64,000 nucleotides of DNA from a phage, in NCBI GenBank assembly GCA_018093385.1, contig GCA_018093385.1_4808.1; one strand, 5' to 3'. Each line of letters starts with the position of its first letter. Position 1 is the stretch's first letter. A program made the translations under genes and the position numbers. A model generated the notes under the pieces. That model was given only the letters and a program-made list of their open reading frames with translations, did no database searches and was not told the origin of the DNA. Below, one piece after another: positions 1,046 through 64,000 of the stretch.

Positions 1046-3379
1046 TTATTTCGCTGATTTCAGCGCGGCTATCTCTGCCTCTAGTGATTCAACCTTTTTC
1101 ATCAACTCCTGCACCACGTGCATCGTGTCAAGAAGCATTGGAGTTGTGTCTAGTTGTTTTTGTTCAACCTCTACGCCTTCGCTCGGATAGAATTTCACCG
1201 TTTTTACATACAACGGGTCAATAATCTCTGCTTGTTGAGCGATGACACCCCTTCTTACCCTTTCCTTTTCATCATTGTTGTAAATAAATGTCACATATTC
1301 CAACGATGAAAGGTTGCTCCATGCTTTTTCAACCGTTCCTGGCTGTATGTCATGCTTCAAATTCTCATCAGAGATGGCATTCTTTTGAAGAGTATAAAAG
1401 CTATCTGATCCAAGAATTGATACAGAGAAAAACACATCATGAGAGTTAGGCTGTATGTTCATCCTTGTCTGGTACTGCGCATTATCATCTCCAACGACGA
1501 GCCAAGTGCCCTGCGCAAAACTTCCGTTATTGTTGTGGATCAAACCGTGGTGAAGCGTTGTGGCATAACCTGTATCAACCTGTTGACCGCCGCTAAAAAG
1601 ACTGTTGAAAGCATAGTTTTGACCCATTGACTGTCTCACCGTTGCATAGGTGCCGATTCTTGTTCCAGTCTCACTCCAAGACATTAAGCTTCCATATCTC
1701 GCGGCGAATCTGTCGCTGCTAAGAGTTCCTGCATCATCAAATGCAAGGTCTTTAGTCACCCCTTTTGTTTTATTGTACACAGACAGTATTGCATAATAAA
1801 ATCCATCCATGTATGCATCGCATCGCAATCCGGCATCAGCTTCAACAACAGTACCAATTTTGTATTGTGCCCTTACTTGCCCTGAAGACCCCTTAACCCC
1901 AGAGCCTGGTCGAACAGAATCCGCATTGATAACTGACCATTGCGTATTCGCGGCAACAAAGCCACCAGATGCACGAATCACCCAAACACCGACAAAGTTG
2001 CGCGGCACGATTTCAGCCGCTGATCTTCCGTATACAGGGCTTGATCGAGAAGCGTCAAAGTTTGTTTGTATGAATCTTGAACCAGAACCTGCTGCTGCTG
2101 GAGAGTCCCCAGAAGTGATCGACTGAAAAGCGCCATTAGTCGCCACCTGACTTGGCGCAGAAGCCAACGTGACCATTGTGCGCGGCGCGGAGTAAGTTAT
2201 ATTTGGTGCACCTGACTCAGAAACGACTCCATTTGATGATGGATTGCCTCCATCACCTCGACCGAACAGGGCCTGAATAGAACCCGTCTGCACGCCGTTT
2301 CGGTCCGGCACACGAAATGTTGTCGTTCCGTTACCTAAAGAGTATTTACCGCGTTTCGCTGGGTCCGCTAACCAATCTGCATCTGCAATAGGTGAAAGCA
2401 TTTGCGCATACGCCCAAAGTTCAGGCCAGTCAGCGCGGTTTAACAACTGCCCATCAGCAACGACTTCATACGGTTGAATATAAGCACGGCTGTCGCGTAA
2501 GTGGAAGTCACCGACGCCATAGTTCATAACGCCGTTCATACTTGGTCCAACGGTGCCTGTGTTTACTAAGTTCTCAACCCAACGCTTGGTCGCGGCATCA
2601 TGATCGTTTACTGGGTCACCAGCAAGCGGTGTTGCACCTTGTGGACGAATATTCAACCATGCTTGCGCATTGTCGGCTGACCCTGTGCCGCCCATAGAAG
2701 TCGGAACGATGTTTTGATCAGCGACTGTGCCAAATCCAAAAGCGGACTTCATACCCTGAATGGTAGTTTGGCCTGTGCCGCCGTTGGCGACTGGGATTAT
2801 GCTTGACTCGGAATAAATCATGACCCAAGGAGACCACGTGCTATTTTGAGCGTTGAATCTTCTTTGGTAAGTATTGTTAATGGAATATGATGTGTATTTT
2901 TGAATGCAACTTTCGGTCGATACTCCTGTTTGCAACACCTCTAAGACTCCTGCTTGTTCAACAGGATAGTTCAATCCAAAAGAGGCGGCGCCATCAGAGT
3001 TCTGATAATATTGCCCAAACCAGCTGCCGGTAAGAGCATTAAGATTCATGCCGGAAGGAACAGTGCCAAAATTTCGCAAGGTATTGGTCAAAGTCGCAGC
3101 AGTTGTTCGAATGGAAAGCATGTCACCAGCCGCCCATGCACGCGCTGCAGTTCCTTCCTGCGCACGCTGCACGGTTAGCACGTTTCCAACTACGGCTGTT
3201 ACTGTGACGATTTCAAATTGGAGGCCTGTTGCAGCGTCGACGATTGTCGCCACTACACGCTCGTTCGCGGCCAAGGTCGGAAAGCCCGACCCTGAGCGGA
3301 TTGTGATTGTGGTGTCTGAAGTCGTCGTTGGCTGGGCAAGCGCGACCTCAAAGTTGTTTTTGAATATTAGCCTTGGCAT
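1046..3379 (-). CDS. tail fibre/tailspike protein with C-terminal intramolecular chaperone (peptidase S74-like) domain
   Basis: 777 aa; C-terminal region SDENLKHDIQP...GVIAQQAEIIDPLYV...LEAEIAALK resembles auto-cleaving chaperone domains of phage fibres/endosialidases; Gly/Ser/Thr-rich central part. Confidence 0.6.
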   Translation of the reverse strand: MPRLIFKNNFEVALAQPTTTSDTTITIRSGSGFPTLAANERVVATIVDAATGLQFEIVTVTAVVGNVLTVQRAQEGTAARAWAAGDMLSIRTTAATLTNTLRNFGTVPSGMNLNALTGSWFGQYYQNSDGAASFGLNYPVEQAGVLEVLQTGVSTESCIQKYTSYSINNTYQRRFNAQNSTWSPWVMIYSESSIIPVANGGTGQTTIQGMKSAFGFGTVADQNIVPTSMGGTGSADNAQAWLNIRPQGATPLAGDPVNDHDAATKRWVENLVNTGTVGPSMNGVMNYGVGDFHLRDSRAYIQPYEVVADGQLLNRADWPELWAYAQMLSPIADADWLADPAKRGKYSLGNGTTTFRVPDRNGVQTGSIQALFGRGDGGNPSSNGVVSESGAPNITYSAPRTMVTLASAPSQVATNGAFQSITSGDSPAAAGSGSRFIQTNFDASRSSPVYGRSAAEIVPRNFVGVWVIRASGGFVAANTQWSVINADSVRPGSGVKGSSGQVRAQYKIGTVVEADAGLRCDAYMDGFYYAILSVYNKTKGVTKDLAFDDAGTLSSDRFAARYGSLMSWSETGTRIGTYATVRQSMGQNYAFNSLFSGGQQVDTGYATTLHHGLIHNNNGSFAQGTWLVVGDDNAQYQTRMNIQPNSHDVFFSVSILGSDSFYTLQKNAISDENLKHDIQPGTVEKAWSNLSSLEYVTFIYNNDEKERVRRGVIAQQAEIIDPLYVKTVKFYPSEGVEVEQKQLDTTPMLLDTMHVVQELMKKVESLEAEIAALKSAK

Positions 3380-3417: not shown

Positions 3418-3759
3418 TTAATTTCTTTTGAGAGGAATATGACGGTGGCTGCCATTATTTGGTTTAATAATGAGCATAAAAACGATTAGAAAGATGATGG
3501 CTGATATACTTAATTCAATCAGCGCGGCTTGAGATATAGATTGATCTTCATGATACTGCTTTTGCATTTCTGCTTTCTTCTGAGCGCAAACTTCAGGTGA
3601 TATGTAATCGCCTTTTGAGTTGCCATAATAAATTTCGCCATTCTCAGAAATAAGCCTGCCGCAAATATCCGTTTCAGCCTGTGCGCTTGACATCATAATA
3701 ACAGTTCCGATGATAGCGGCGATAGTCCAGATTAACAGTTGTGATAAAGTGTTGTTCAT
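3418..3759 (-). CDS. small membrane protein (likely start at internal Met, MNNTLSQ...)
   Basis: Strong RBS AAGAGG 5 nt upstream of ATG at 3759; N-terminal hydrophobic segment plus C-terminal hydrophobic segment; track ORF extends to 3849. Confidence 0.45.
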   Translation of the reverse strand: MNNTLSQLLIWTIAAIIGTVIMMSSAQAETDICGRLISENGEIYYGNSKGDYISPEVCAQKKAEMQKQYHEDQSISQAALIELSISAIIFLIVFMLIIKPNNGSHRHIPLKRN

Positions 3760-3955
3760 AATAACCTCTTTAAATTCCCTTCCCATTTCGGGAAGGGTGA
3801 TAATTATTTTACGCGAAAGAATAGGCGCGTGCCACACAGCGAGTCCCAACGGCCCTCACCATCCCATATCGACCCAACACCAGCAGCGATTGGGCCAGCA
3901 GAATTGGCGGAATTGGCCCAGGCAAGACGTTTCAACTTCCAACTGCACCATCGAT

Positions 3956-6909: not shown

Positions 6910-7004
6910 TTCAATCTCCTTTCATTTGGTTAAATAAAATATAACTCAAAATGATACAAAAGCAAAATATTTTATGAACTATTTATGATAACCATACATA
7001 TCAT

Positions 7005-7033
7005 TTGCTTACAAACACATGAATATTTATAAT
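7005..7033 (+). promoter_or_regulatory. sigma70-like promoter upstream of portal gene
   Basis: TTGCTT - 17 nt - TATAAT in AT-rich divergent intergenic region. Confidence 0.35.
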
Positions 7034-7070: not shown

Positions 7071-9446
7071 ATGAAAATTCTTGGCATAAAACTCTGGGAG
7101 AAGACGCAACCAGAAGCCGAACCAGCGGAGATGCCGCCAGGCGACCCATTGGCACCGTTTGAACGCCTTGAAAGGCGCGGCAGCGGTCAACGCTGGGAAA
7201 AGACTGAAAGCAATCGACCGACCTTTAAAACGGTTGATGACTTCCCTTTATATGAGCCTGATATCAACGGGGACGGCGTTGCAATCATCAAAGGTCGCTC
7301 AGTAGATTCAGCAACCGTATCCAAAAAAGTTATGGATAATGCCTTAAAGAACATCAGTTCAGAAGGGCAGGTGAATCCATACACAGTGCCTATTCAGTTG
7401 CAAAACTGGTACTTGTCGCAGTCATTCATCGGCTATCAAGCTTGCGCCATCATCGCGCAGCACTGGCTGGTGAACAAGGCTTGTTCCATGGTAGGTCGCG
7501 ATGCGGTCCGTAAAGGCTGGGAAGTCAAATCCAGTTCTGAGTCGGAATTGTCAGTACAGGCCAGCGAACGCCTAAAGCAAATTGATAAAGAATTTAATAT
7601 CAAAGAGCACTTAGTTGAAGCCGAACGATTCAAGAATATTTTTGGCATCCGCGTCATCATATTTGATGTGCGCAGTGATGACCCAGAATATTATAGTAAA
7701 CCTTTTAACATCGATGGTGTGACAAAAGGGTCTTATAAGGGAATCATTCAGGTTGACCCTTATTGGATGATGCCATTCTTGACGTCTGAAAACACTGCAG
7801 ACCCTGCGTCACAGCATTTCTATGATCCAGAATACTGGGTTATCAGCGGACAGCGTTATCATCGCAGCCACCTAATCATCTTGCGCAACGATGAGCCAGC
7901 TGATATTCTCAAGCCGACTTATATCTACGGCGGCATTCCTCTGACTCAGCAGATTTATGAACGTATCTATGCCGCTGAACGTACCGCTAACGAAGCGCCA
8001 TTGCTGGCGATGTCTAAGCGTACAACCACGCTGCGGACCGACGTTGACAAGGCGATTGCCAATGAGCGGTCGTTTGCCGAACGTCTGATGATGTGGATTA
8101 AGTACCGCGACAACTATGCGGTAAAAGTGCTTGGTCAGAAAGAAGAGATGGACCAGTTTGACATCAACTTGTCAGACTTCGACAGCATCATCATGAACCA
8201 GTACCAGCTGGTGGCTGCAATCGCAAAAGTGCCGTCGACGAAGCTATTAGGGACGTCACCTAAAGGCTTTAACGCCACTGGTGAGTTCGAGATGGTCAGC
8301 TATCACGAAGAATTGGAAACTTGTCAGCAGCACGATTTGACGAAGATTCTGGACCGTCACTATAAAATCCTTTTGAAATCTGAAGGTGTTGAAGTCGACG
8401 TTAAAGTGGCATGGGAGCCAGTTGGTTCACTTACTGCTACTCAGCTTGCAGAGATTAACGACAAACGAGCGAATACTGGTAAGACTCTCATTGATGCTGG
8501 CGTCATCTCCCCTGATGAAGAGCGCGACCGCATCAAGGACGACAAAAACAGCGGCTACAACCGTTTGCCAGAAGATACAGCAGAAGAAACCCCAGGGATG
8601 TCTCCAGAGAATATGGCATTGCTTGGCAAGTCTGCTGGTGAAGTTCTGCAAGGTAAAGCCGATATTGAACAGGCCAAAGCTGATGTCGTCAAGATGGGCG
8701 GCCAGTTCTATAGTGAGACTGGTATCATGCCGGAAGGTGCCGCGCGCGGTGAGTTGGCAGAAAACCCTGACAGGGCGCCAGTTGAGATCAACATGGATGA
8801 TACCGATGACGAATCAAGCCATCAGGTTGATGTCCTAACGCAACTGAAAGAAGGTCTGGAGGGTATTGCTGACTATTACCTTAAAGAAGGTCAGGATGTG
8901 GATTTTGACCCTCAAAAAGACGCAAGGTCTGTGCAGCCGTCTACCCTTCCAAGCGTAAAAGGCAATGTAGTCAACTTGCGCCACAATGTAGGGAAGATGG
9001 ATGCCTCATCGCTGCCTAAGATGAAGTTGCACGGGATGATTCTTGGTATTGAGAATCCTCGCAACAGCATTCGCAGGGGCAACAGCCTTGATGGTGAATG
9101 GGCAGTTAAGATGCCGCACCATTACGGATTTATCAAAGGCACCAAGGGCGCTGATGGTGATGAAGTCGACTGCTTTGTTGGACCAAATATGAAGTCGCCT
9201 AAAGTATTCATCATTAACCAAAATGATAATTATTCTGGCGAATTTGATGAACACAAGTGTATGCTTGGATTTGATTCAGCAGAAGAAGCGAAAGAAGCTT
9301 ATCAAGCATCATTTGGTAACGGTTGGAATGGATTTGACTCAATCCACGAATTGGATGTAAACTCATTCAAGGAGTGGTTGAAGGGTGATTGCTCTCAAGC
9401 ATATGGAGCACTCAATAATCCTACTAATTCACCGAAGCAAGGTTGA
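7071..9446 (+). CDS. portal protein with C-terminal extension
   Basis: 791 aa ORF between TerL and MuF-like gene (synteny); C-terminal ~120 aa carry pyrophosphatase-like motifs (see findings). Confidence 0.55.
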   Translation: MKILGIKLWEKTQPEAEPAEMPPGDPLAPFERLERRGSGQRWEKTESNRPTFKTVDDFPLYEPDINGDGVAIIKGRSVDSATVSKKVMDNALKNISSEGQVNPYTVPIQLQNWYLSQSFIGYQACAIIAQHWLVNKACSMVGRDAVRKGWEVKSSSESELSVQASERLKQIDKEFNIKEHLVEAERFKNIFGIRVIIFDVRSDDPEYYSKPFNIDGVTKGSYKGIIQVDPYWMMPFLTSENTADPASQHFYDPEYWVISGQRYHRSHLIILRNDEPADILKPTYIYGGIPLTQQIYERIYAAERTANEAPLLAMSKRTTTLRTDVDKAIANERSFAERLMMWIKYRDNYAVKVLGQKEEMDQFDINLSDFDSIIMNQYQLVAAIAKVPSTKLLGTSPKGFNATGEFEMVSYHEELETCQQHDLTKILDRHYKILLKSEGVEVDVKVAWEPVGSLTATQLAEINDKRANTGKTLIDAGVISPDEERDRIKDDKNSGYNRLPEDTAEETPGMSPENMALLGKSAGEVLQGKADIEQAKADVVKMGGQFYSETGIMPEGAARGELAENPDRAPVEINMDDTDDESSHQVDVLTQLKEGLEGIADYYLKEGQDVDFDPQKDARSVQPSTLPSVKGNVVNLRHNVGKMDASSLPKMKLHGMILGIENPRNSIRRGNSLDGEWAVKMPHHYGFIKGTKGADGDEVDCFVGPNMKSPKVFIINQNDNYSGEFDEHKCMLGFDSAEEAKEAYQASFGNGWNGFDSIHELDVNSFKEWLKGDCSQAYGALNNPTNSPKQG

Positions 9447-9447
9447 T

Positions 9448-10299
9448 ATGGCTTTTAAAGCTTCGAAAAAACGTGAACGTCGCTCGCCCGATAGAATCGG
9501 GCGCGGCAGTCCGATAATCCCATCCAACGCTATTGCGATGGCCTATCGTCGTGAGATGAAAGGTCTTTGCTATGCGATGATTGACGACTATCAAGCAGGA
9601 ATTGCTGAGTGGCTTGAAAAGAAGCAGGTTAAAAAGTTCTTTGCGCAAGACTCTGCTGATTCAACTTTTCAGACCTTGATGAAGCGACTGCAACTGAAAT
9701 GGGCAAAAGCTTTCGCCCGTGTCGGGTCAAAGATTGCCGCAGATTTCATCAAGTCAGTTGAAAAGGGTGCCACTTCTGCTACATTTGCAAGTCTTAAATC
9801 TGCAGGAATAGAAGCGCCAAAAGCCACATATAATAAATTCGTTGAGAACACTCTTAAAACAAGCGAGACGTTCAACACGACTTTAGTGACTAAGGTTGGC
9901 GAAGATATTCACAACAGGGTGTACGAAGCGGTGATGCTTTCGCTTACTTCGCCAGACCCAGCGCAACAAGGCACGTCCGGCATTCAGGCGGCATTAAGGA
10001 ATGTAAAACACTTCTCTGCAAAACGCGTAGACCTTATTGCAAAAGACCAAACAAGCAAACTTTATTGCGTATTAAGTGATGAAAGGATGCGACAGAATGG
10101 CGTTGAGGAATTTGAGTGGGCGCATTCAGGAGCAGGAAAAGAGCCGCGAATATCGCATGAGCACGTCGACGGAATGAGATTTAAACTTGATGACAAGCGC
10201 CTATGGGAAGTTGGCGGCGAATTGAAGTTCAAAAAGGGTGACATCGGTCCTCCTGGATGGGCGATACACTGCAAGTGCAGAAAAATACCAATTATCTGA
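9448..10299 (+). CDS. head morphogenesis protein (Mu F / SPP1 gp7-like minor head protein)
   Basis: Position immediately after portal; ATG 9448 one nt after portal stop; size ~284 aa. Confidence 0.5.
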   Translation: MAFKASKKRERRSPDRIGRGSPIIPSNAIAMAYRREMKGLCYAMIDDYQAGIAEWLEKKQVKKFFAQDSADSTFQTLMKRLQLKWAKAFARVGSKIAADFIKSVEKGATSATFASLKSAGIEAPKATYNKFVENTLKTSETFNTTLVTKVGEDIHNRVYEAVMLSLTSPDPAQQGTSGIQAALRNVKHFSAKRVDLIAKDQTSKLYCVLSDERMRQNGVEEFEWAHSGAGKEPRISHEHVDGMRFKLDDKRLWEVGGELKFKKGDIGPPGWAIHCKCRKIPII

Positions 10300-10306
10300 G
10301 GTCATT

Positions 10307-11227
10307 ATGACGATACCAATCAACACATTCCCTCTATCTGGACAAACTCCAGTCTTGCCTGCGGTGTATGCTAATGGCTTGGCAATTGTCTCAGAATTCA
10401 CTTCTGATAAAAACTTGATTGTTCCACTGAGCCCGCCGCTTGCATCAGGGTATAACTCAGTAGGCCAATTCTTTATGATTGGCAATGATGGCGATTCGAC
10501 CAGCAAGCCTAATCTGACATTGTCTGTACCTAAGATGGACATCACAGACGTTCAAACTGGCTTGACTGCATCAACAATCACCATTGCTTTTGGAGAAGCG
10601 GTGATTATAGGAATGGAGTCTGGAGGGTCCAAGAATGCTGTCGCCGTTAAGGTAGTCAAATCCAGCGACAACCAATACACGTTACCAGCTGCGACGGCTT
10701 CCGTTCTCGGCGGCGTCAAAATAGGAAGCGGAATAAGCGTCGCAGGTGACGGTACAATTAGCGTCACTCAATACTCATTGCCGATTGCGTCAGCATCTAC
10801 TTTAGGCGGCGTAAAGGTCGGTACAACTCTATCAATTGATGGTTCCGGTGTGCTTAACGCAGCGGAAAGCACCGTCCAGAATGCCACGAACAGTGTTAGC
10901 AATCCTCCAACCACTTTGGTTAATCTGGCAACCTTAAACCTTCCTGCAGGAAAGTGGCTTGTGACGGCAAGTCAGTTGACTGTCGCGACAGCAGGAATTC
11001 AAGCGAACACCGGAATTACAGCCAAATTGTCAACAAGCGATTCAGATATTACGGATGATGCATTTACGATGTCAGCTGGCATTCGGGCTGCAGGTCGTTT
11101 CGGCGGCAATATTCCAACAAAGATAATTACTCTTGCCGCGCCTGGCGATGTGTATCTAAACTATCAATGCACAGATGCGTTGACATCTACCGTTTACGGA
11201 CAGATCACCGCAATCAAGCTGAACTAA
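10307..11227 (+). CDS. tail-fibre-repeat-containing protein
   Basis: Tandem motif YTLPAATASVLGGVKIGSGISV / YSLPIASASTLGGVKVGTTLSI typical of phage fibre repeats; ATG 10307 chosen over upstream track start. Confidence 0.5.
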   Translation: MTIPINTFPLSGQTPVLPAVYANGLAIVSEFTSDKNLIVPLSPPLASGYNSVGQFFMIGNDGDSTSKPNLTLSVPKMDITDVQTGLTASTITIAFGEAVIIGMESGGSKNAVAVKVVKSSDNQYTLPAATASVLGGVKIGSGISVAGDGTISVTQYSLPIASASTLGGVKVGTTLSIDGSGVLNAAESTVQNATNSVSNPPTTLVNLATLNLPAGKWLVTASQLTVATAGIQANTGITAKLSTSDSDITDDAFTMSAGIRAAGRFGGNIPTKIITLAAPGDVYLNYQCTDALTSTVYGQITAIKLN

Positions 11228-11237
11228 AGAGGAAGTT

Positions 11238-11375
11238 ATGCAAAAGATTATTCAGTCACGTTATGTTAAAGTGCGAAATATTAATTGCAACTCTTTGCTT
11301 TCTTGGAAATGGGCTGTTTACGACTCGATGTTAATTGGCGTTTTAGTTGCAGGAGTGCTATTTAATATTCACTGA
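11238..11375 (+). CDS. small hydrophobic protein (45 aa)
   Basis: RBS AGAGGAAG upstream of ATG; C-terminal hydrophobic stretch; below track size cutoff. Confidence 0.3.
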   Translation: MQKIIQSRYVKVRNINCNSLLSWKWAVYDSMLIGVLVAGVLFNIH

Positions 11376-11399
11376 ATTCATCGGCAAAGGATTGCCGCG

Positions 11400-11700
11400 A
11401 GTTTTATACGTATAATGACGTATCATCCGTATCAAGTAAGTTGTTGTTTTCAAAAGAATCTTACGGATGATACGGATGATACGCATTGCCGCCGTACTAT
11501 ATAGGAATTCAAATAAATTAATTTAAAATTATATATCTAATTTAATTTTATTTTTTTATAAACTCTTATATATGAAAAGTATCCGTATCATCCGTATCAT
11601 CCGTAGCACACCAGTGATAGCGCGGCTTATACACCGATACGGATAAAAATACGCCTCATTTTATCCGTATCATCCGTATCACACTAATAAAGGCGCGGCT
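11400..11700. repeat. iteron cluster flanking an AT-rich core
   Basis: 9-bp unit TACGGATGA / TCATCCGTA in 2-3 tandem copies at about 11421-11436, 11461-11482, 11581-11608, 11634-11643, 11662-11683 in both orientations around ~75 bp of nearly pure A/T (11500-11576); palindrome TATACGTATA at 11406-11415. Confidence 0.6.
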
Positions 11701-11790
11701 ATATCGGTCGTTATACATATTCAAACCATAATTATTGTTTGCCTAAGTTTTTTTCATTAGATATAATACACAATACTTATTTGAGGGTGG

Positions 11791-13209
11791 ATGCGAATGC
11801 AAACGGCACGCGAAATTGACAAAAATGGATTCTTGACGATTATGGGTTGTCCAATTTCGTCATTTGGCATTTTTGATTATTCTGCTGGTCAAGTTGGTCT
11901 TGATGGTGATCCGAATCGCATCGTAAAAGTCTATCGCCCTGAGTCAGCGGTGAAAGACCCCGAAGCGATAGATTCATTCAAAAATATCCCTTTCATCGAC
12001 AATCACGAAATGCTTTCTGGATTTGAAGGTGATGAGGATAACACAGCACCCGAAGAGTATGGAGTTGATGGCGTTCTGACTGGCAATGTTTATTATGACA
12101 AGCCATGGATGCGCGGCGACCTTAAAGTGTTTAGCCGTCGTCTGAAGAAGGCCATTGATTCTGGAAAGGTTGACTTGTCTTTGGGCTATGACTGTGAATT
12201 CATCATACAGTCTGGAGAGTTTGACGGGCAGCCGTATGAAGTGGTGCAGACAACTCTTCGCGGCAACCACATTGCTCTCGTGGACGTTGGTCGAGTACCA
12301 GGTGCACGGGTGCTGGATGGTCGTTGCTTTGACCATCTTTGTTTGACGACTGTAACACCATCCAACGAGGATTTAGACATGCCAAAACCGTTAAAAGGTA
12401 AAGCGCGTGATAATGCTGTTGAACAGCTGAAATCACTGATCCCTGCGCTCGAACAATTTCTGAATGAAGAGAGTACTGAAGCTGCTCATCAGGACGAAGT
12501 TGAAGTGAAAGCAGAAGAGAAGGACTCAACCGAAAATCGTGAAGAAGTAATGGTTGATCCAGAAGTCAAGGCAGAAGCAGAAGAAACCCCAGAAGGTGAA
12601 GAGAAGTTTGAAGTTGAAACTGAATCTCACGCCAGCGGCGAACTTCCGCAATTGATCAGCCAAATCGAAGCACTTATTGCAAAACTGAAAGGTGGCGCGG
12701 TAGGTGATGAAGAAGAAGTTGAAGCCGAAGTCAAAGACGAAGAAGTTGAAGTCAAGGCTGAAGATGTATCACCTTGCGACAAAGCTGAAGATGTGGTTAG
12801 CGGCCTGCAAAACAGCAACGTAAAGGGGGCTTCGGTCGAAAAAGATGACAAACCGACAAAAGCGGCGAAAGCGTCGCCAGGTCCAGCAAAAGGGGAACAC
12901 TCAATGGCATCTGATTCAGCAGTTGCTGCTTTCTACGCTGATTCTGCTCGTAAGAATAGCCTCTACCAGCGCCTGTCTAAAGTTGTTGGTGCCTTTGATC
13001 ATGCAACTATGGACTCCAAGTCCGTAGCGAAATATGGCGCTAAAAAGTTAGGCTTGAAGTGCGTTGATGGTGCTGAGTTTGACGTGGTGGATAATTATCT
13101 GCGCGGCGTTGAGCACGGTCAGAAACAGCGTGTAGTCGCAAAACAAAAGGCCGCTGCGGATTCTGCAGCAACTGACGAAGCATTTGAAGCTTGGTTGAAA
13201 GGGGAATAA
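11791..13209 (+). CDS. putative prohead protease/scaffolding protein
   Basis: Position before major capsid gene; long acidic low-complexity/coiled-coil middle (EVEVKAEEKD...); alternative start ATG 11797. Confidence 0.5.
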   Translation: MRMQTAREIDKNGFLTIMGCPISSFGIFDYSAGQVGLDGDPNRIVKVYRPESAVKDPEAIDSFKNIPFIDNHEMLSGFEGDEDNTAPEEYGVDGVLTGNVYYDKPWMRGDLKVFSRRLKKAIDSGKVDLSLGYDCEFIIQSGEFDGQPYEVVQTTLRGNHIALVDVGRVPGARVLDGRCFDHLCLTTVTPSNEDLDMPKPLKGKARDNAVEQLKSLIPALEQFLNEESTEAAHQDEVEVKAEEKDSTENREEVMVDPEVKAEAEETPEGEEKFEVETESHASGELPQLISQIEALIAKLKGGAVGDEEEVEAEVKDEEVEVKAEDVSPCDKAEDVVSGLQNSNVKGASVEKDDKPTKAAKASPGPAKGEHSMASDSAVAAFYADSARKNSLYQRLSKVVGAFDHATMDSKSVAKYGAKKLGLKCVDGAEFDVVDNYLRGVEHGQKQRVVAKQKAAADSAATDEAFEAWLKGE

Positions 13210-59194: not shown

Positions 59195-59578
59195 ATGAGA
59201 ATGAAGCGTTGCCCTTACTGCCACGATGTGATGCACCTTCCACACGAAGAGTTTGTGCAGCACATGACTAACTGTGATAAGAATCCTAATAGCGAAAGCC
59301 AACTTGAAGAAAGAATGTTCTTGGTGTCATTCAAAGCTTCTGCTTATGAAGTGCAACGTTCTTACGGCGCACCAAGTACGATTTACTGTCCAACAACATT
59401 GAGAAGCGACATCGACTCAATTCAGCTTGCGGCTTGGATTAACGTTAAGGAAGGAATCACGCCGCACTTTATTGCGCGCATCCAATCTCAGATTCTACAA
59501 ATCAAGCGCGAATACAACCGTGACATCACTGAAGTGAAGGTGTTGTCTATCACACCGATGAATAAGGAGTTGCCGTGA
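59195..59578 (+). CDS. small Cys/His zinc-finger-like protein (paralog A2)
   Basis: MRMKRCPYCHDVMHL...QHMTNCDKNPNSES, tandem to A1. Confidence 0.45.
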   Translation: MRMKRCPYCHDVMHLPHEEFVQHMTNCDKNPNSESQLEERMFLVSFKASAYEVQRSYGAPSTIYCPTTLRSDIDSIQLAAWINVKEGITPHFIARIQSQILQIKREYNRDITEVKVLSITPMNKELP

Positions 59579-63089: not shown

Positions 63090-63538
63090 TGGGCAAACGG
63101 CTTATCGCCGCTGGTTGGGCCATACCGAAGTGGGGCCATCGTGCGCATTACTTTGACGAAGGAGAAGTGCAAAGCCTTTGCGGTCGCGCAACGTATTTCG
63201 GTGATGAGCGCGTCAGCGGCGATTATATCGACTCGCTTTTAGGCAAAGGTGATTGCAAGAAGTGCCAGAATATATTAAGGGATATTCTCACGCAAAAAGG
63301 ATTGCTTGAGCTTGATGAATCGGAAGAAGTAATTGAGCTTAAGCTGGAAGCCAATCACCTTATTAATATGTTCAAGAACTATTACGCAACTAATATGCGA
63401 TCAAAGATGCGTAAGAAAGTAATAGAAGAGGTACTTACTTACAATCCGTTAAGGATGAATAAAACTAAATTGAAGAAATTTAACATAATGGTAAGGAAAG
63501 AATTTAAAAGGCTAGGAGTGAAGAATTTTATATTTTAA
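63086..63538 (+). CDS. hypothetical protein
   Basis: ORF in track, probable GTG start; last gene before noncoding region. Confidence 0.4.
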   Translation: MMGKRLIAAGWAIPKWGHRAHYFDEGEVQSLCGRATYFGDERVSGDYIDSLLGKGDCKKCQNILRDILTQKGLLELDESEEVIELKLEANHLINMFKNYYATNMRSKMRKKVIEEVLTYNPLRMNKTKLKKFNIMVRKEFKRLGVKNFIF

Positions 63539-63554
63539 TAGTGATTAATGTTAA

Positions 63555-63580
63555 GAGGGCCGAATGGCCCTTTTGTTTGC
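63555..63580 (+). terminator. rho-independent terminator
   Basis: GGGCC-GAAT-GGCCC hairpin followed by TTTTGTTTG. Confidence 0.65.
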
Positions 63581-63599
63581 CTGTTGTTTGTGAGGCTTT

Positions 63600-63830
63600 A
63601 TTATCGGATAAAGCGATTGATTTGTGTAAATCTATTAGAGGGTCGTGGGCAGTGAGTATTGTGACGTGAATTTTGTGTCTTGAATATGTGTGCGAATCTG
63701 GAAGATTATTGTACTGTGGTGCTGTGGGATTGGAGAGGGAATCACTAGGAATTGGAGCGTGTACCGTGGTGTGTGGTCCTGTAGGCTGCGCCGTCTATGG
63801 GATTGCCGCTTGAAATTAAAAAGGAGATAT
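63600..63830. other. noncoding G+T-rich, C-depleted tract
   Basis: Long stretch dominated by GTG/TGT/TGG words with very few C on plus strand; no ORF. Confidence 0.4.
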
Positions 63831-63859
63831 AGTTAGCTGGCTAACCTTACGCATAGAAT

Positions 63860-63975
63860 TTAAGCGTATAATGACGTAAGATTTGGACCTATCCGTAGTT
63901 CACTCCACACACTTCTATGGTGCGCCGCGACTGGTTTCAGTGGTACATCTTACGGATGATACGGATGATACGCGT
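63860..63975. repeat. second copy of iteron/promoter-like module
   Basis: GCGTATAATGACGTA and 27-bp ATCTTACGGATGATACGGATGATACGC identical to 11458-11484; palindrome GTTAGC-TG-GCTAAC at about 63831-63846. Confidence 0.55.
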
Positions 63976-64000
63976 CGCCGCTATACTTTATACAACTTTG

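Follow-up and report, generated by a model that had tools for sequence, protein, structure and literature searches.

What function is served by clustered short repeats and an easily melted core lying among the head genes of a PB1-like phage? The question is raised by 415 bp of noncoding DNA at positions 11376–11790 of the window, by which is meant the whole 64-kb stretch of phage DNA that was analysed. The window belongs to a Wifcevirus, a PB1-like E. coli myovirus related to the Pseudomonas PB1-like phages, and is ~99% identical to phages HermannAdler_Bas98 (Bas98) and WFC around this locus, termed here element A. The initial annotation of the sequence had compared the layout to that of an iteron-type replication origin or, alternatively, of a multi-operator regulatory region.

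Organization and constraint of element A

Element A is bounded on its left by a 45-aa ORF (11238–11375), which itself follows the head-fibre gene (10238–11227, a match to Pfam Phage_head_fibr), and on its right by the head maturation protease gene (11791–13209). The initial annotation had placed it between a fibre-repeat gene and a scaffold gene; the one detail to correct is that the gene on the right carries a prohead protease annotation, not that of a scaffold. The 45-aa ORF directly 5' of the element is annotated in relatives and has a hydrophobic carboxyl-terminal half. A small ORF (43–50 aa) is found at the matching position in phages MTx, MyoSmar, JG024, Kyle and XcP1.

At least five clusters of a 9-bp unit in both orientations, a nearly pure A/T core of ~75 bp and a perfect palindrome had been noted in these ~400 bp of noncoding DNA, and all of them were recovered here. 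The 9-mer TCATCCGTA/TACGGATGA occurs nine times in the 64-kb window versus 0.28 ± 0.57 copies expected from shuffled sequences, none of 100 shuffles reaching nine copies. Six copies lie at 11423–11678, two at 63951–63968 and one at 11050, eight of the nine exact 9-mers of the window being inside element A and a second element, termed element B, at the window end. Read in the register CGTATCATC (CGTATCATC/TACGGATGA) the units form five clusters in both orientations, and the 7-mer ATCCGTA is present nine times in element A versus three times in the remaining ~62 kb. The core is 92% AT at 11506–11580 and 98% AT at 11511–11560. It has the highest AT content and the lowest stability of the entire window, with a 60-bp nearest-neighbour ΔG of −54.3 kcal/mol versus a window mean of −83.0 (sd 5.6), which is more than 5 sd away. 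The parts of element A are the following:

11382–11397, + strand: terminator-like hairpin CGGCAAAGGATTGCCG followed by a T-run; closes the head-fibre/small-ORF unit
11404–11415, no strand: perfect 12-nt palindrome TTATACGTATAA; overlaps the first, degenerate repeat unit
11409–11436, + strand: arm L1, 9–10-bp units CGTATAATG, spacer A, CGTATCATC and CGTATCAAG; one perfect and two degenerate
11458–11486, − strand: arm L2, two perfect units (11466–11483) and a degenerate third to 11486
11487–11509, + strand: GC-rich TTGCCGCC followed by the CTATATAGGAATTC box
11506–11580, no strand: AT core, the least stable duplex; its counterpart in element B contains the physical genome end
11580–11607, + strand: arm R1, three tandem units, two perfect (11584–11601) flanked by partial ones
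11636–11654, − strand: arm R2, GATACGGATAAAAATACG; aligns with GCAATACGGATGATACGTCATGATACGC of the B copies
11660–11683, + strand: arm R3, two to three units, 11666–11683 being one perfect and one degenerate unit
11739–11767, + strand: predicted sigma70-type promoter TTGCCT-17-TATAAT (10/12 matches), just 5' of the protease gene

The arms at 11462–11486 and 11581–11605 are inverted partners (25 nt, 96% complementary, 94 nt apart), and arms L2 and R1 have the potential to form a 22-bp stem (z = −6.5). An assignment to a known RNA family was discarded, the only Rfam matches being sub-threshold hits to miRNA hairpins that are caused by these inverted arms. Arm R3 together with GCGCGGCT (11693–11700) forms a 38-nt direct repeat of 11590–11627 with 84% identity. 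The position of the promoter at 11739–11767 is kept in MTx, XcP1 and LMA2.

Other promoter assignments within the element were rejected. A sigma70 promoter directed into the AT core is not supported: apart from the promoter at 11739 the scan gave just one weak match (9/12), and the TATATAGG box, when inspected by hand, had no −35 element 16–18 bp away. The TATA(T)AGGAA box, which occurs only in elements A and B, does not qualify as a general phage promoter. The motif GCCGCGNCTGG has 8 matches versus 2.9 expected, and these are scattered. Elsewhere in the window, the stretch that is second in AT content (6931–7005, 83% AT) carries no CGTATCATC units. It is found just 5' of a large + strand ORF (7071–9446, coding a minor head protein in Bas98), the genes that precede it are annotated on the − strand in Bas98, and it may be a divergent promoter region.

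Element A is under constraint. Across five Wifcevirus genomes 3.2% of the columns are variable in 11419–11790 and 2.3% in the arms plus core. Of the third codon positions, 6.8% vary in the protease gene, a higher fraction than in element A (Fisher p = 0.03) or in its arms plus core (p = 0.017), and 33% vary in the head-fibre gene. The element is thus found on a boundary, with the hypervariable head-fibre gene to its left and the conserved protease gene to its right. A common host repetitive element (REP, ERIC or MITE), the explanation that the initial annotation had singled out as adverse to its proposal, is ruled out: no match to element A was found in 20,395 records of 5,426 complete E. coli genomes.

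Element B and the left end of the genome

The second element is interrupted by the end of the window. Its recognizable parts are the following:

63790–64000, + strand: left half of element B, cut by the window end; paralogous to and co-oriented with element A
63801: GATTGCCGC
63865: CGTATAATGACGTA
63891: TATCCGTAG
63915–63934: CTATGGTGCGCCGCGACTGG
63947–63973: arm L2'

The 27 nt at 11458–11484 are identical to 63947–63973, where two perfect units are found at 63951–63968. The 14-mer CGTATAATGACGTA of arm L1 (11409–11422) recurs at 63865–63878, and GATTGCCGC, which is included in the terminator-like hairpin of element A, recurs at 63801–63809. The units and the 27-nt and 14-nt repeats close to position 64000 therefore place the window end inside element B. 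The complete layout, which is that of A, is seen in relatives: the left arm, made of TACGGATGA units, is followed to the right by a TATA-rich box and an AT core, after which come the right arms and a sigma70-type promoter. Local alignment of A with B gave z values of 17–30 against shuffles in three Wifcevirus pairs, and when two A and three B copies were aligned the homology ran from the arms via the AT core to the promoter −10 element and the leader. The CTATATAGGAATTC box is also present in element B of Bas98 and of WFC, and both Myosmarvirus copies have a similar sequence, GCTATAAGGAA.

The virion left end, AACTCC|ATTTT, which is the boundary of the direct terminal repeat (DTR), is found 18 bp past window position 64000. 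The records of WFC, WFH and Mansfield all begin at this sequence in the AT core of B. Comparison of record ends gives a DTR of 3,784 bp for WFC and of 3,701 bp for WFH, in line with the ~3.7 kb given earlier (Korf 2019) and with the PhageTerm-predicted 3,673 bp of Mansfield, whose record was opened there (PMC6753283). The right DTR boundary, GGGTCTTT|TGGTGCG, is the same in WFH and Mansfield, and no A/B-type element was found at it in these two phages. Note that the WFC terminal repeat (3700–3790) extends ~80 bp past this boundary of WFH (3701) and Mansfield (3673); its end is probably over-extended in the record.

The gene for the small terminase subunit (TerS) lies ~380 bp past the window end, and both this gene and the ~3.7-kb terminal repeat are outside the window. 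The protein coded by the first gene right of B is annotated as small terminase in Mansfield (CDS 361–834) and matches PDB 7UXE, the small terminase of phage E217, with E = 9e-33; JG024 gp79 is 39% identical. Element B sits 360–616 bp 5' of the TerS gene, and element A is found 16 kb off, 5' of the protease gene. The termini in B and the TerS homologue beside it therefore identify B as the packaging-start/left-terminus region.

Several additional features were observed around B. Genes for "hypothetical proteins" have been annotated within noncoding B, across arms, AT core or terminus, namely JG024 gp77 (2706–3287 in the compared sequence), Mansfield CDS 001 (125–283) and MyoSmar gp007 (101–466); they are probably spurious gene calls. 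The window is mosaic: it is 99.4% identical to Bas98 around A (11000–12400), and the 700 bp left of B (63300–64000) are closest to Bas101 and WFH (96%), only 43% of them aligning to Bas98. This switch of the closest relative indicates a recombination breakpoint near B. The 20-nt CTATGGTGCGCCGCGACTGG (63915–63934) is identical in Wifcevirus B and MyoSmar B, the remaining element sequence being unrelated, and a related CTTGCCGCGCCTGGC is present at 11131–11145 within the head-fibre coding sequence and also 5' of element B in WFC. Both sequences may be phage-specific promoters, since a promoter motif of this type with a CTGGG core was described for Pbunavirus 14-1 (Putzeys 2024). The genome-length metagenomic IMG/VR contig IMGVR_UViG_3300045988_152943 (68,520 bp) has an end inside A, exactly where the 27-nt A/B repeat starts (equivalent to window position 11458); a physical genome end was rejected on this account, the simplest reading being an assembly break at the repeat.

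The A/B pair and the packaging cut in four genera

An element 5' of the protease gene paired with one 5' of the TerS gene is found in four genera, Wifcevirus, Myosmarvirus, Kylevirus and Pbunavirus, with within-genome similarities of z = 17–46. The highest value is that of the Serratia phages MTx and MyoSmar (Myosmarvirus, z = 46). The MTx protease (53% identical) is coded by a gene that is preceded by a gap of 356 bp; A and B of this phage are paralogous over ~250 bp, with B at the junction region 5' of the TerS homologue, and five of the six genomic copies of the MTx repeat ACTTTTCG/CGAAAAGT are in A and B. MyoSmar shares ~70% identity with MTx here, the same blocks being kept in both copies. 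Pantoea phage Kyle (Kylevirus) features a pair with GGTTATT/AATAACC repeats (z = 42). In the pair of Pseudomonas phage JG024 (Pbunavirus, z = 38) the repeats are of the TAATTTGG type, and an inverted repeat of 19 nt surrounds the core. For Pbunavirus 14-1, homology with JG024 predicts the counterparts of A and B in gaps of ~500 bp that precede the protease gene (match from 13,289) and the TerS gene. The Pbunavirus A copy reaches at least 80% coverage in 295 of 299 matching records, mostly at two places per record.

Comparison of A with A and of B with B between genera revealed no significant similarity (z ≤ 2.2). Elements that are alike within a genome and unrelated between genera point to sites that covary with one genus-specific binding partner, and gene conversion between A and B may contribute to their similarity within a genome. 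In the Xanthomonas phages XcP1 and FoX7 (Carpasinavirus relatives) neither the element nor A/B paralogy was found. These phages keep the protease promoter and the TerS homologue, from which it follows that TerS function does not need the A/B layout. The Pbunavirus intergenic regions are known to carry predicted promoters and "AT-rich boxes" without assigned function (Garbe 2010; LMA2 record). No description of the A/B duplication, of its genus-specific repeats or of their covariation across genera was found in the literature searched, and these are the features that appear to be new here.

The conservation of the pair bears on the idea that A is a recombination linker or a selfish repeat at a module boundary, devoid of a dedicated function. 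The element does separate a hypervariable gene (33%) from a conserved one (6.8%), and the closest relative of the window switches near B. However, four genera have kept the layout with motifs that covary, the variability of A is below that of synonymous sites and just two copies are present per genome, which makes this idea highly improbable.

In each of the four genera with the pair, the terminus or pac site that has been reported is located in B; it is a DTR boundary in Wifcevirus, Myosmarvirus and Kylevirus and a pac site in Pbunavirus. For MTx and MyoSmar the boundaries given by PhageTerm are both in the B core, 14 bp apart in homologous coordinates, and the Kyle record begins in the B core, with an implied DTR of 3,603 bp. 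Among the Pbunavirus phages, Ab27–Ab29 have a single fixed read end and no DTR, and their records were opened at that end (Essoh 2015); the start of the Ab27 record corresponds to JG024 position 59,375. In agreement, 36 of 161 long reads start at 59,376 ± 5, with a matching pac fragment, in a genome that is circularly permuted (Ipoutcha 2024). The PhageTerm pac site of SCUT-S1 was likewise placed in an AT-rich region (Guo 2019). Across the four genera the cut in B is found ~30–50 bp right of the left arm, and short repeats flank both sides of the core in A as well as in B.

None of the published termini or of the listed record starts is in A, and several are at B. The sequence AACTCC|ATTTT was sought in element A of the window and is absent, and the Myosmarvirus block GCGTACACT..TTTCTAGAGT adjacent to the cut is conserved in both B copies and missing from both A copies. 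Element A is thus apparently not cut, as judged from the published single fixed ends and from the sequence specific to B. The same observations weigh on the proposal that A is a secondary packaging site, cut rarely and starting a minority of packaging events. Its arm-core-arm layout and orientation are those of B, and for headful Pbunavirus genomes a second start point could be tolerable. It is opposed by the one fixed read end (Essoh 2015), the one over-represented long-read start (Ipoutcha 2024), the record starts and the lack in A of the cut-proximal sequences of B in Myosmarvirus and in the window. A rarely used packaging site is accordingly judged very unlikely; it and the function-free linker are the less likely readings of the element.

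Candidate functions of element A

Element A probably serves as a platform to which a genus-specific protein, most likely TerS, binds 5' of the promoter of the protease-scaffold-capsid genes. The fuller reading that we favour, tentatively, is that of an apparently uncut second copy of a co-oriented packaging-start control region of ~400 bp, whose units would bind this protein; on this view the region is of the terminase-recognition type and has a conserved twin inside the genome. The repeats, the constraint, the A/B paralogy with its covarying motifs, the termini in B and the TerS homology are observed; the identity of the bound protein, the lack of a cut in A and the effect of binding there are inferred. 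TerS is the most economical candidate because it is the specificity subunit of the terminase, because its gene adjoins B and because its E217 homologue is a decamer with helix-turn-helix motifs. These motifs are found at the amino terminus and face outward from the decameric ring, and a carboxyl-terminal helix has been proposed to link rings (PMC9611059).

The clustered 9-bp units would then be the binding sites of the genus-specific phage protein, and two to three tandem units at a 9-bp pitch could, we infer, engage adjacent subunits of the TerS ring. The inverted arms would bracket the easily melted core and distort it. At B the protein-DNA complex would position the packaging cut; at A, where the cut-proximal sequence differs, the protein would bind without cutting. 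The location of A 5' of the protease-scaffold-capsid promoter means that a complex formed there could modulate this promoter or bridge to B, and tuning of the promoter would link the supply of capsid proteins to the terminase level. The infectivity of E217 falls on TerS overexpression (PMC9611059), which is compatible with promoter tuning or with A–B bridging and proves neither.

Some observations count against this reading. According to a review of TerS proteins (PMC9611059), DNA binding by the E217 protein was not appreciable in vitro. The arms of A are found 56–330 bp 5' of the −35 element, and their distance to the promoter differs between A and B, and no simple regulatory geometry can be derived from this. 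Furthermore, the A/B paralogy includes the promoters, and a dedicated transcription factor would explain the shared sequence equally well. This bears on the multi-operator alternative of the initial annotation, since the paralogy reaches the conserved sigma70-type promoter.

In its explicit form this alternative regards A and B as duplicated promoter-operator cassettes that place TerS and the protease-scaffold-capsid operon under one phage regulator other than TerS, the terminus being in B for no other reason than that the terminase site arose beside the TerS gene. We consider it rather unlikely. The paralogy runs through the −10 element and leader of the sigma70-type promoters of both downstream genes, the protease promoter is kept even in XcP1, which has no arms, promoters had been predicted earlier inside the Pbunavirus copy (Garbe 2010; LMA2 record), and the A/B motifs occur only at these two operons. 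However, no DNA-binding domain turned up when the small proteins encoded beside A and B were scanned with Pfam and PHROGs, the nearest arm ends 56 bp 5' of the −35 element with a different spacing in B, and a cut between or beside the arms in four genera, despite unrelated sequences, is hard to call a coincidence.

The replication origin of the initial annotation can be set against the same body of data. It would make A and B iteron-plus-unwinding-element origins, or an origin and its cis partner in the manner of P4 ori/crr, acted upon by a phage initiator such as a VirE/D5-type primase; the packaging cut in B would merely adjoin an origin. Satellite phage P4 is a precedent for two separated iteron elements. 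Clustered short repeats flank the core of A, whose duplex is the least stable of the 64 kb, a VirE-type primase gene is found directly left of B (in Myosmarvirus and Pbunavirus only), and the AT-rich pac region of SCUT-S1 has been speculated to be an origin (Guo 2019). Yet the flanks of A are head genes, with no adjacent replication or initiator gene, and in Wifcevirus the primase region is about a dozen small genes away from B. GC and AT skew have no inflection at A and track gene orientation and transcription; since the skew follows transcription, GC skew is uninformative on where replication starts. Scans of A for the DnaA-box and IHF consensus found no sites. The units are 9 bp long and arranged as tandem pairs or triplets in inverted arms, and are not phased direct iterons of 17–22 bp. 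The sole mapped biochemical event in this family of elements is the packaging cut. Of the features of an origin, clustered repeats and an AT-rich unwinding element are thus present at A, while the iteron form and an adjacent initiator gene are lacking. The anatomy seen by the initial annotation, a predicted multi-site protein-binding region around an easily melted core, stands; its extension to an origin found no specific support at A and is doubtful.

The favoured packaging-start twin can be compared with known systems. The pac site of phage P1 has clusters of a short motif on both sides of the terminase cut, made of 6-bp TGATCA/G units that are subject to Dam methylation, together with an IHF site, and it is a single site. 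Repeat clusters flank the cut of B in the same way and A copies this layout, but here the units are of 9 bp, there is no IHF consensus and a second, apparently uncut copy is found 16 kb away. SPP1 pacL-pacC-pacR and the R-sites of lambda cosB are single-copy and located in or next to the TerS-TerL operon. They share with the present elements the repeated boxes near the cut for TerS recognition, the bendable AT-rich DNA and the adjoining TerS gene. They differ in that the TerS gene is here ~9 kb from that of TerL (58 kb the other way round, as reported for E217) and in that a paralogue occupies the promoter region of the capsid genes.

Bridging of two homologous sites by TerS rings has been proposed for T4, where Black's synapsis model involves the gene 16 pac site and a homologous gene 19 sequence. 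The T4 sites are ~24 bp long, within coding sequences and ~3 kb apart. The likeness is that in both systems a site at the TerS gene has a homologous, co-oriented partner among head genes; in contrast, the present elements are noncoding, ~400 bp long, equipped with AT cores and promoters and separated by 16 kb, and a synapsis between them is hypothetical. Phage lambda ori, plasmid oriV and P4 ori/crr also feature repeat clusters beside an AT-rich unwinding element, but unit length and orientation differ here, no initiator gene adjoins A and the mapped event is a packaging cut. In T7 the SRL and SRR repeat arrays flank both ends of the terminal repeat, and AT-rich phiOL and phiOR elements are present. 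The shared trait is that a DTR phage has short-repeat arrays and AT-rich, promoter-associated elements at the boundaries of its terminal repeat, with the difference that here only the left DTR boundary carries an element and that an extra copy is internal. Among these systems the closest analogues appear to be the pac sites of P1 and SPP1, with their flanking repeats, and T4 genes 16 and 19, with their two-site arrangement.

A more far-reaching version of the favoured reading, which we regard as speculative and not likely as it stands, is a two-site terminase system in PB1-like phages. TerS would recognize genus-specific repeats of 8–10 bp at both B and A, and its binding at A would either couple capsid synthesis to the terminase level or allow a ring-to-ring synapsis of A and B that serves as a checkpoint before the cut. 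If true, such a system would be a noncoding, conserved counterpart of the gene 16/gene 19 synapsis proposed for T4. It would also supply a recognition sequence for E217 TerS, whose structure is solved and which has no known target sequence (PMC9611059).

DNA recognition by small terminases is unsettled, and the covarying repeats of four genera provide concrete candidate recognition sequences. Among these phages, those of the genus Pbunavirus are widely used in phage therapy. For rebooting or engineering of such phages both regions A and B must be preserved; the direct repeats that A and B have in common, 27 bp identical in this window, break assemblies and could mediate deletion or duplication of the intervening 16-kb segment. 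If A binds the same protein as B, these phages would have a built-in link from DNA packaging to the assembly of heads, or else A would act in cis as a second packaging element.
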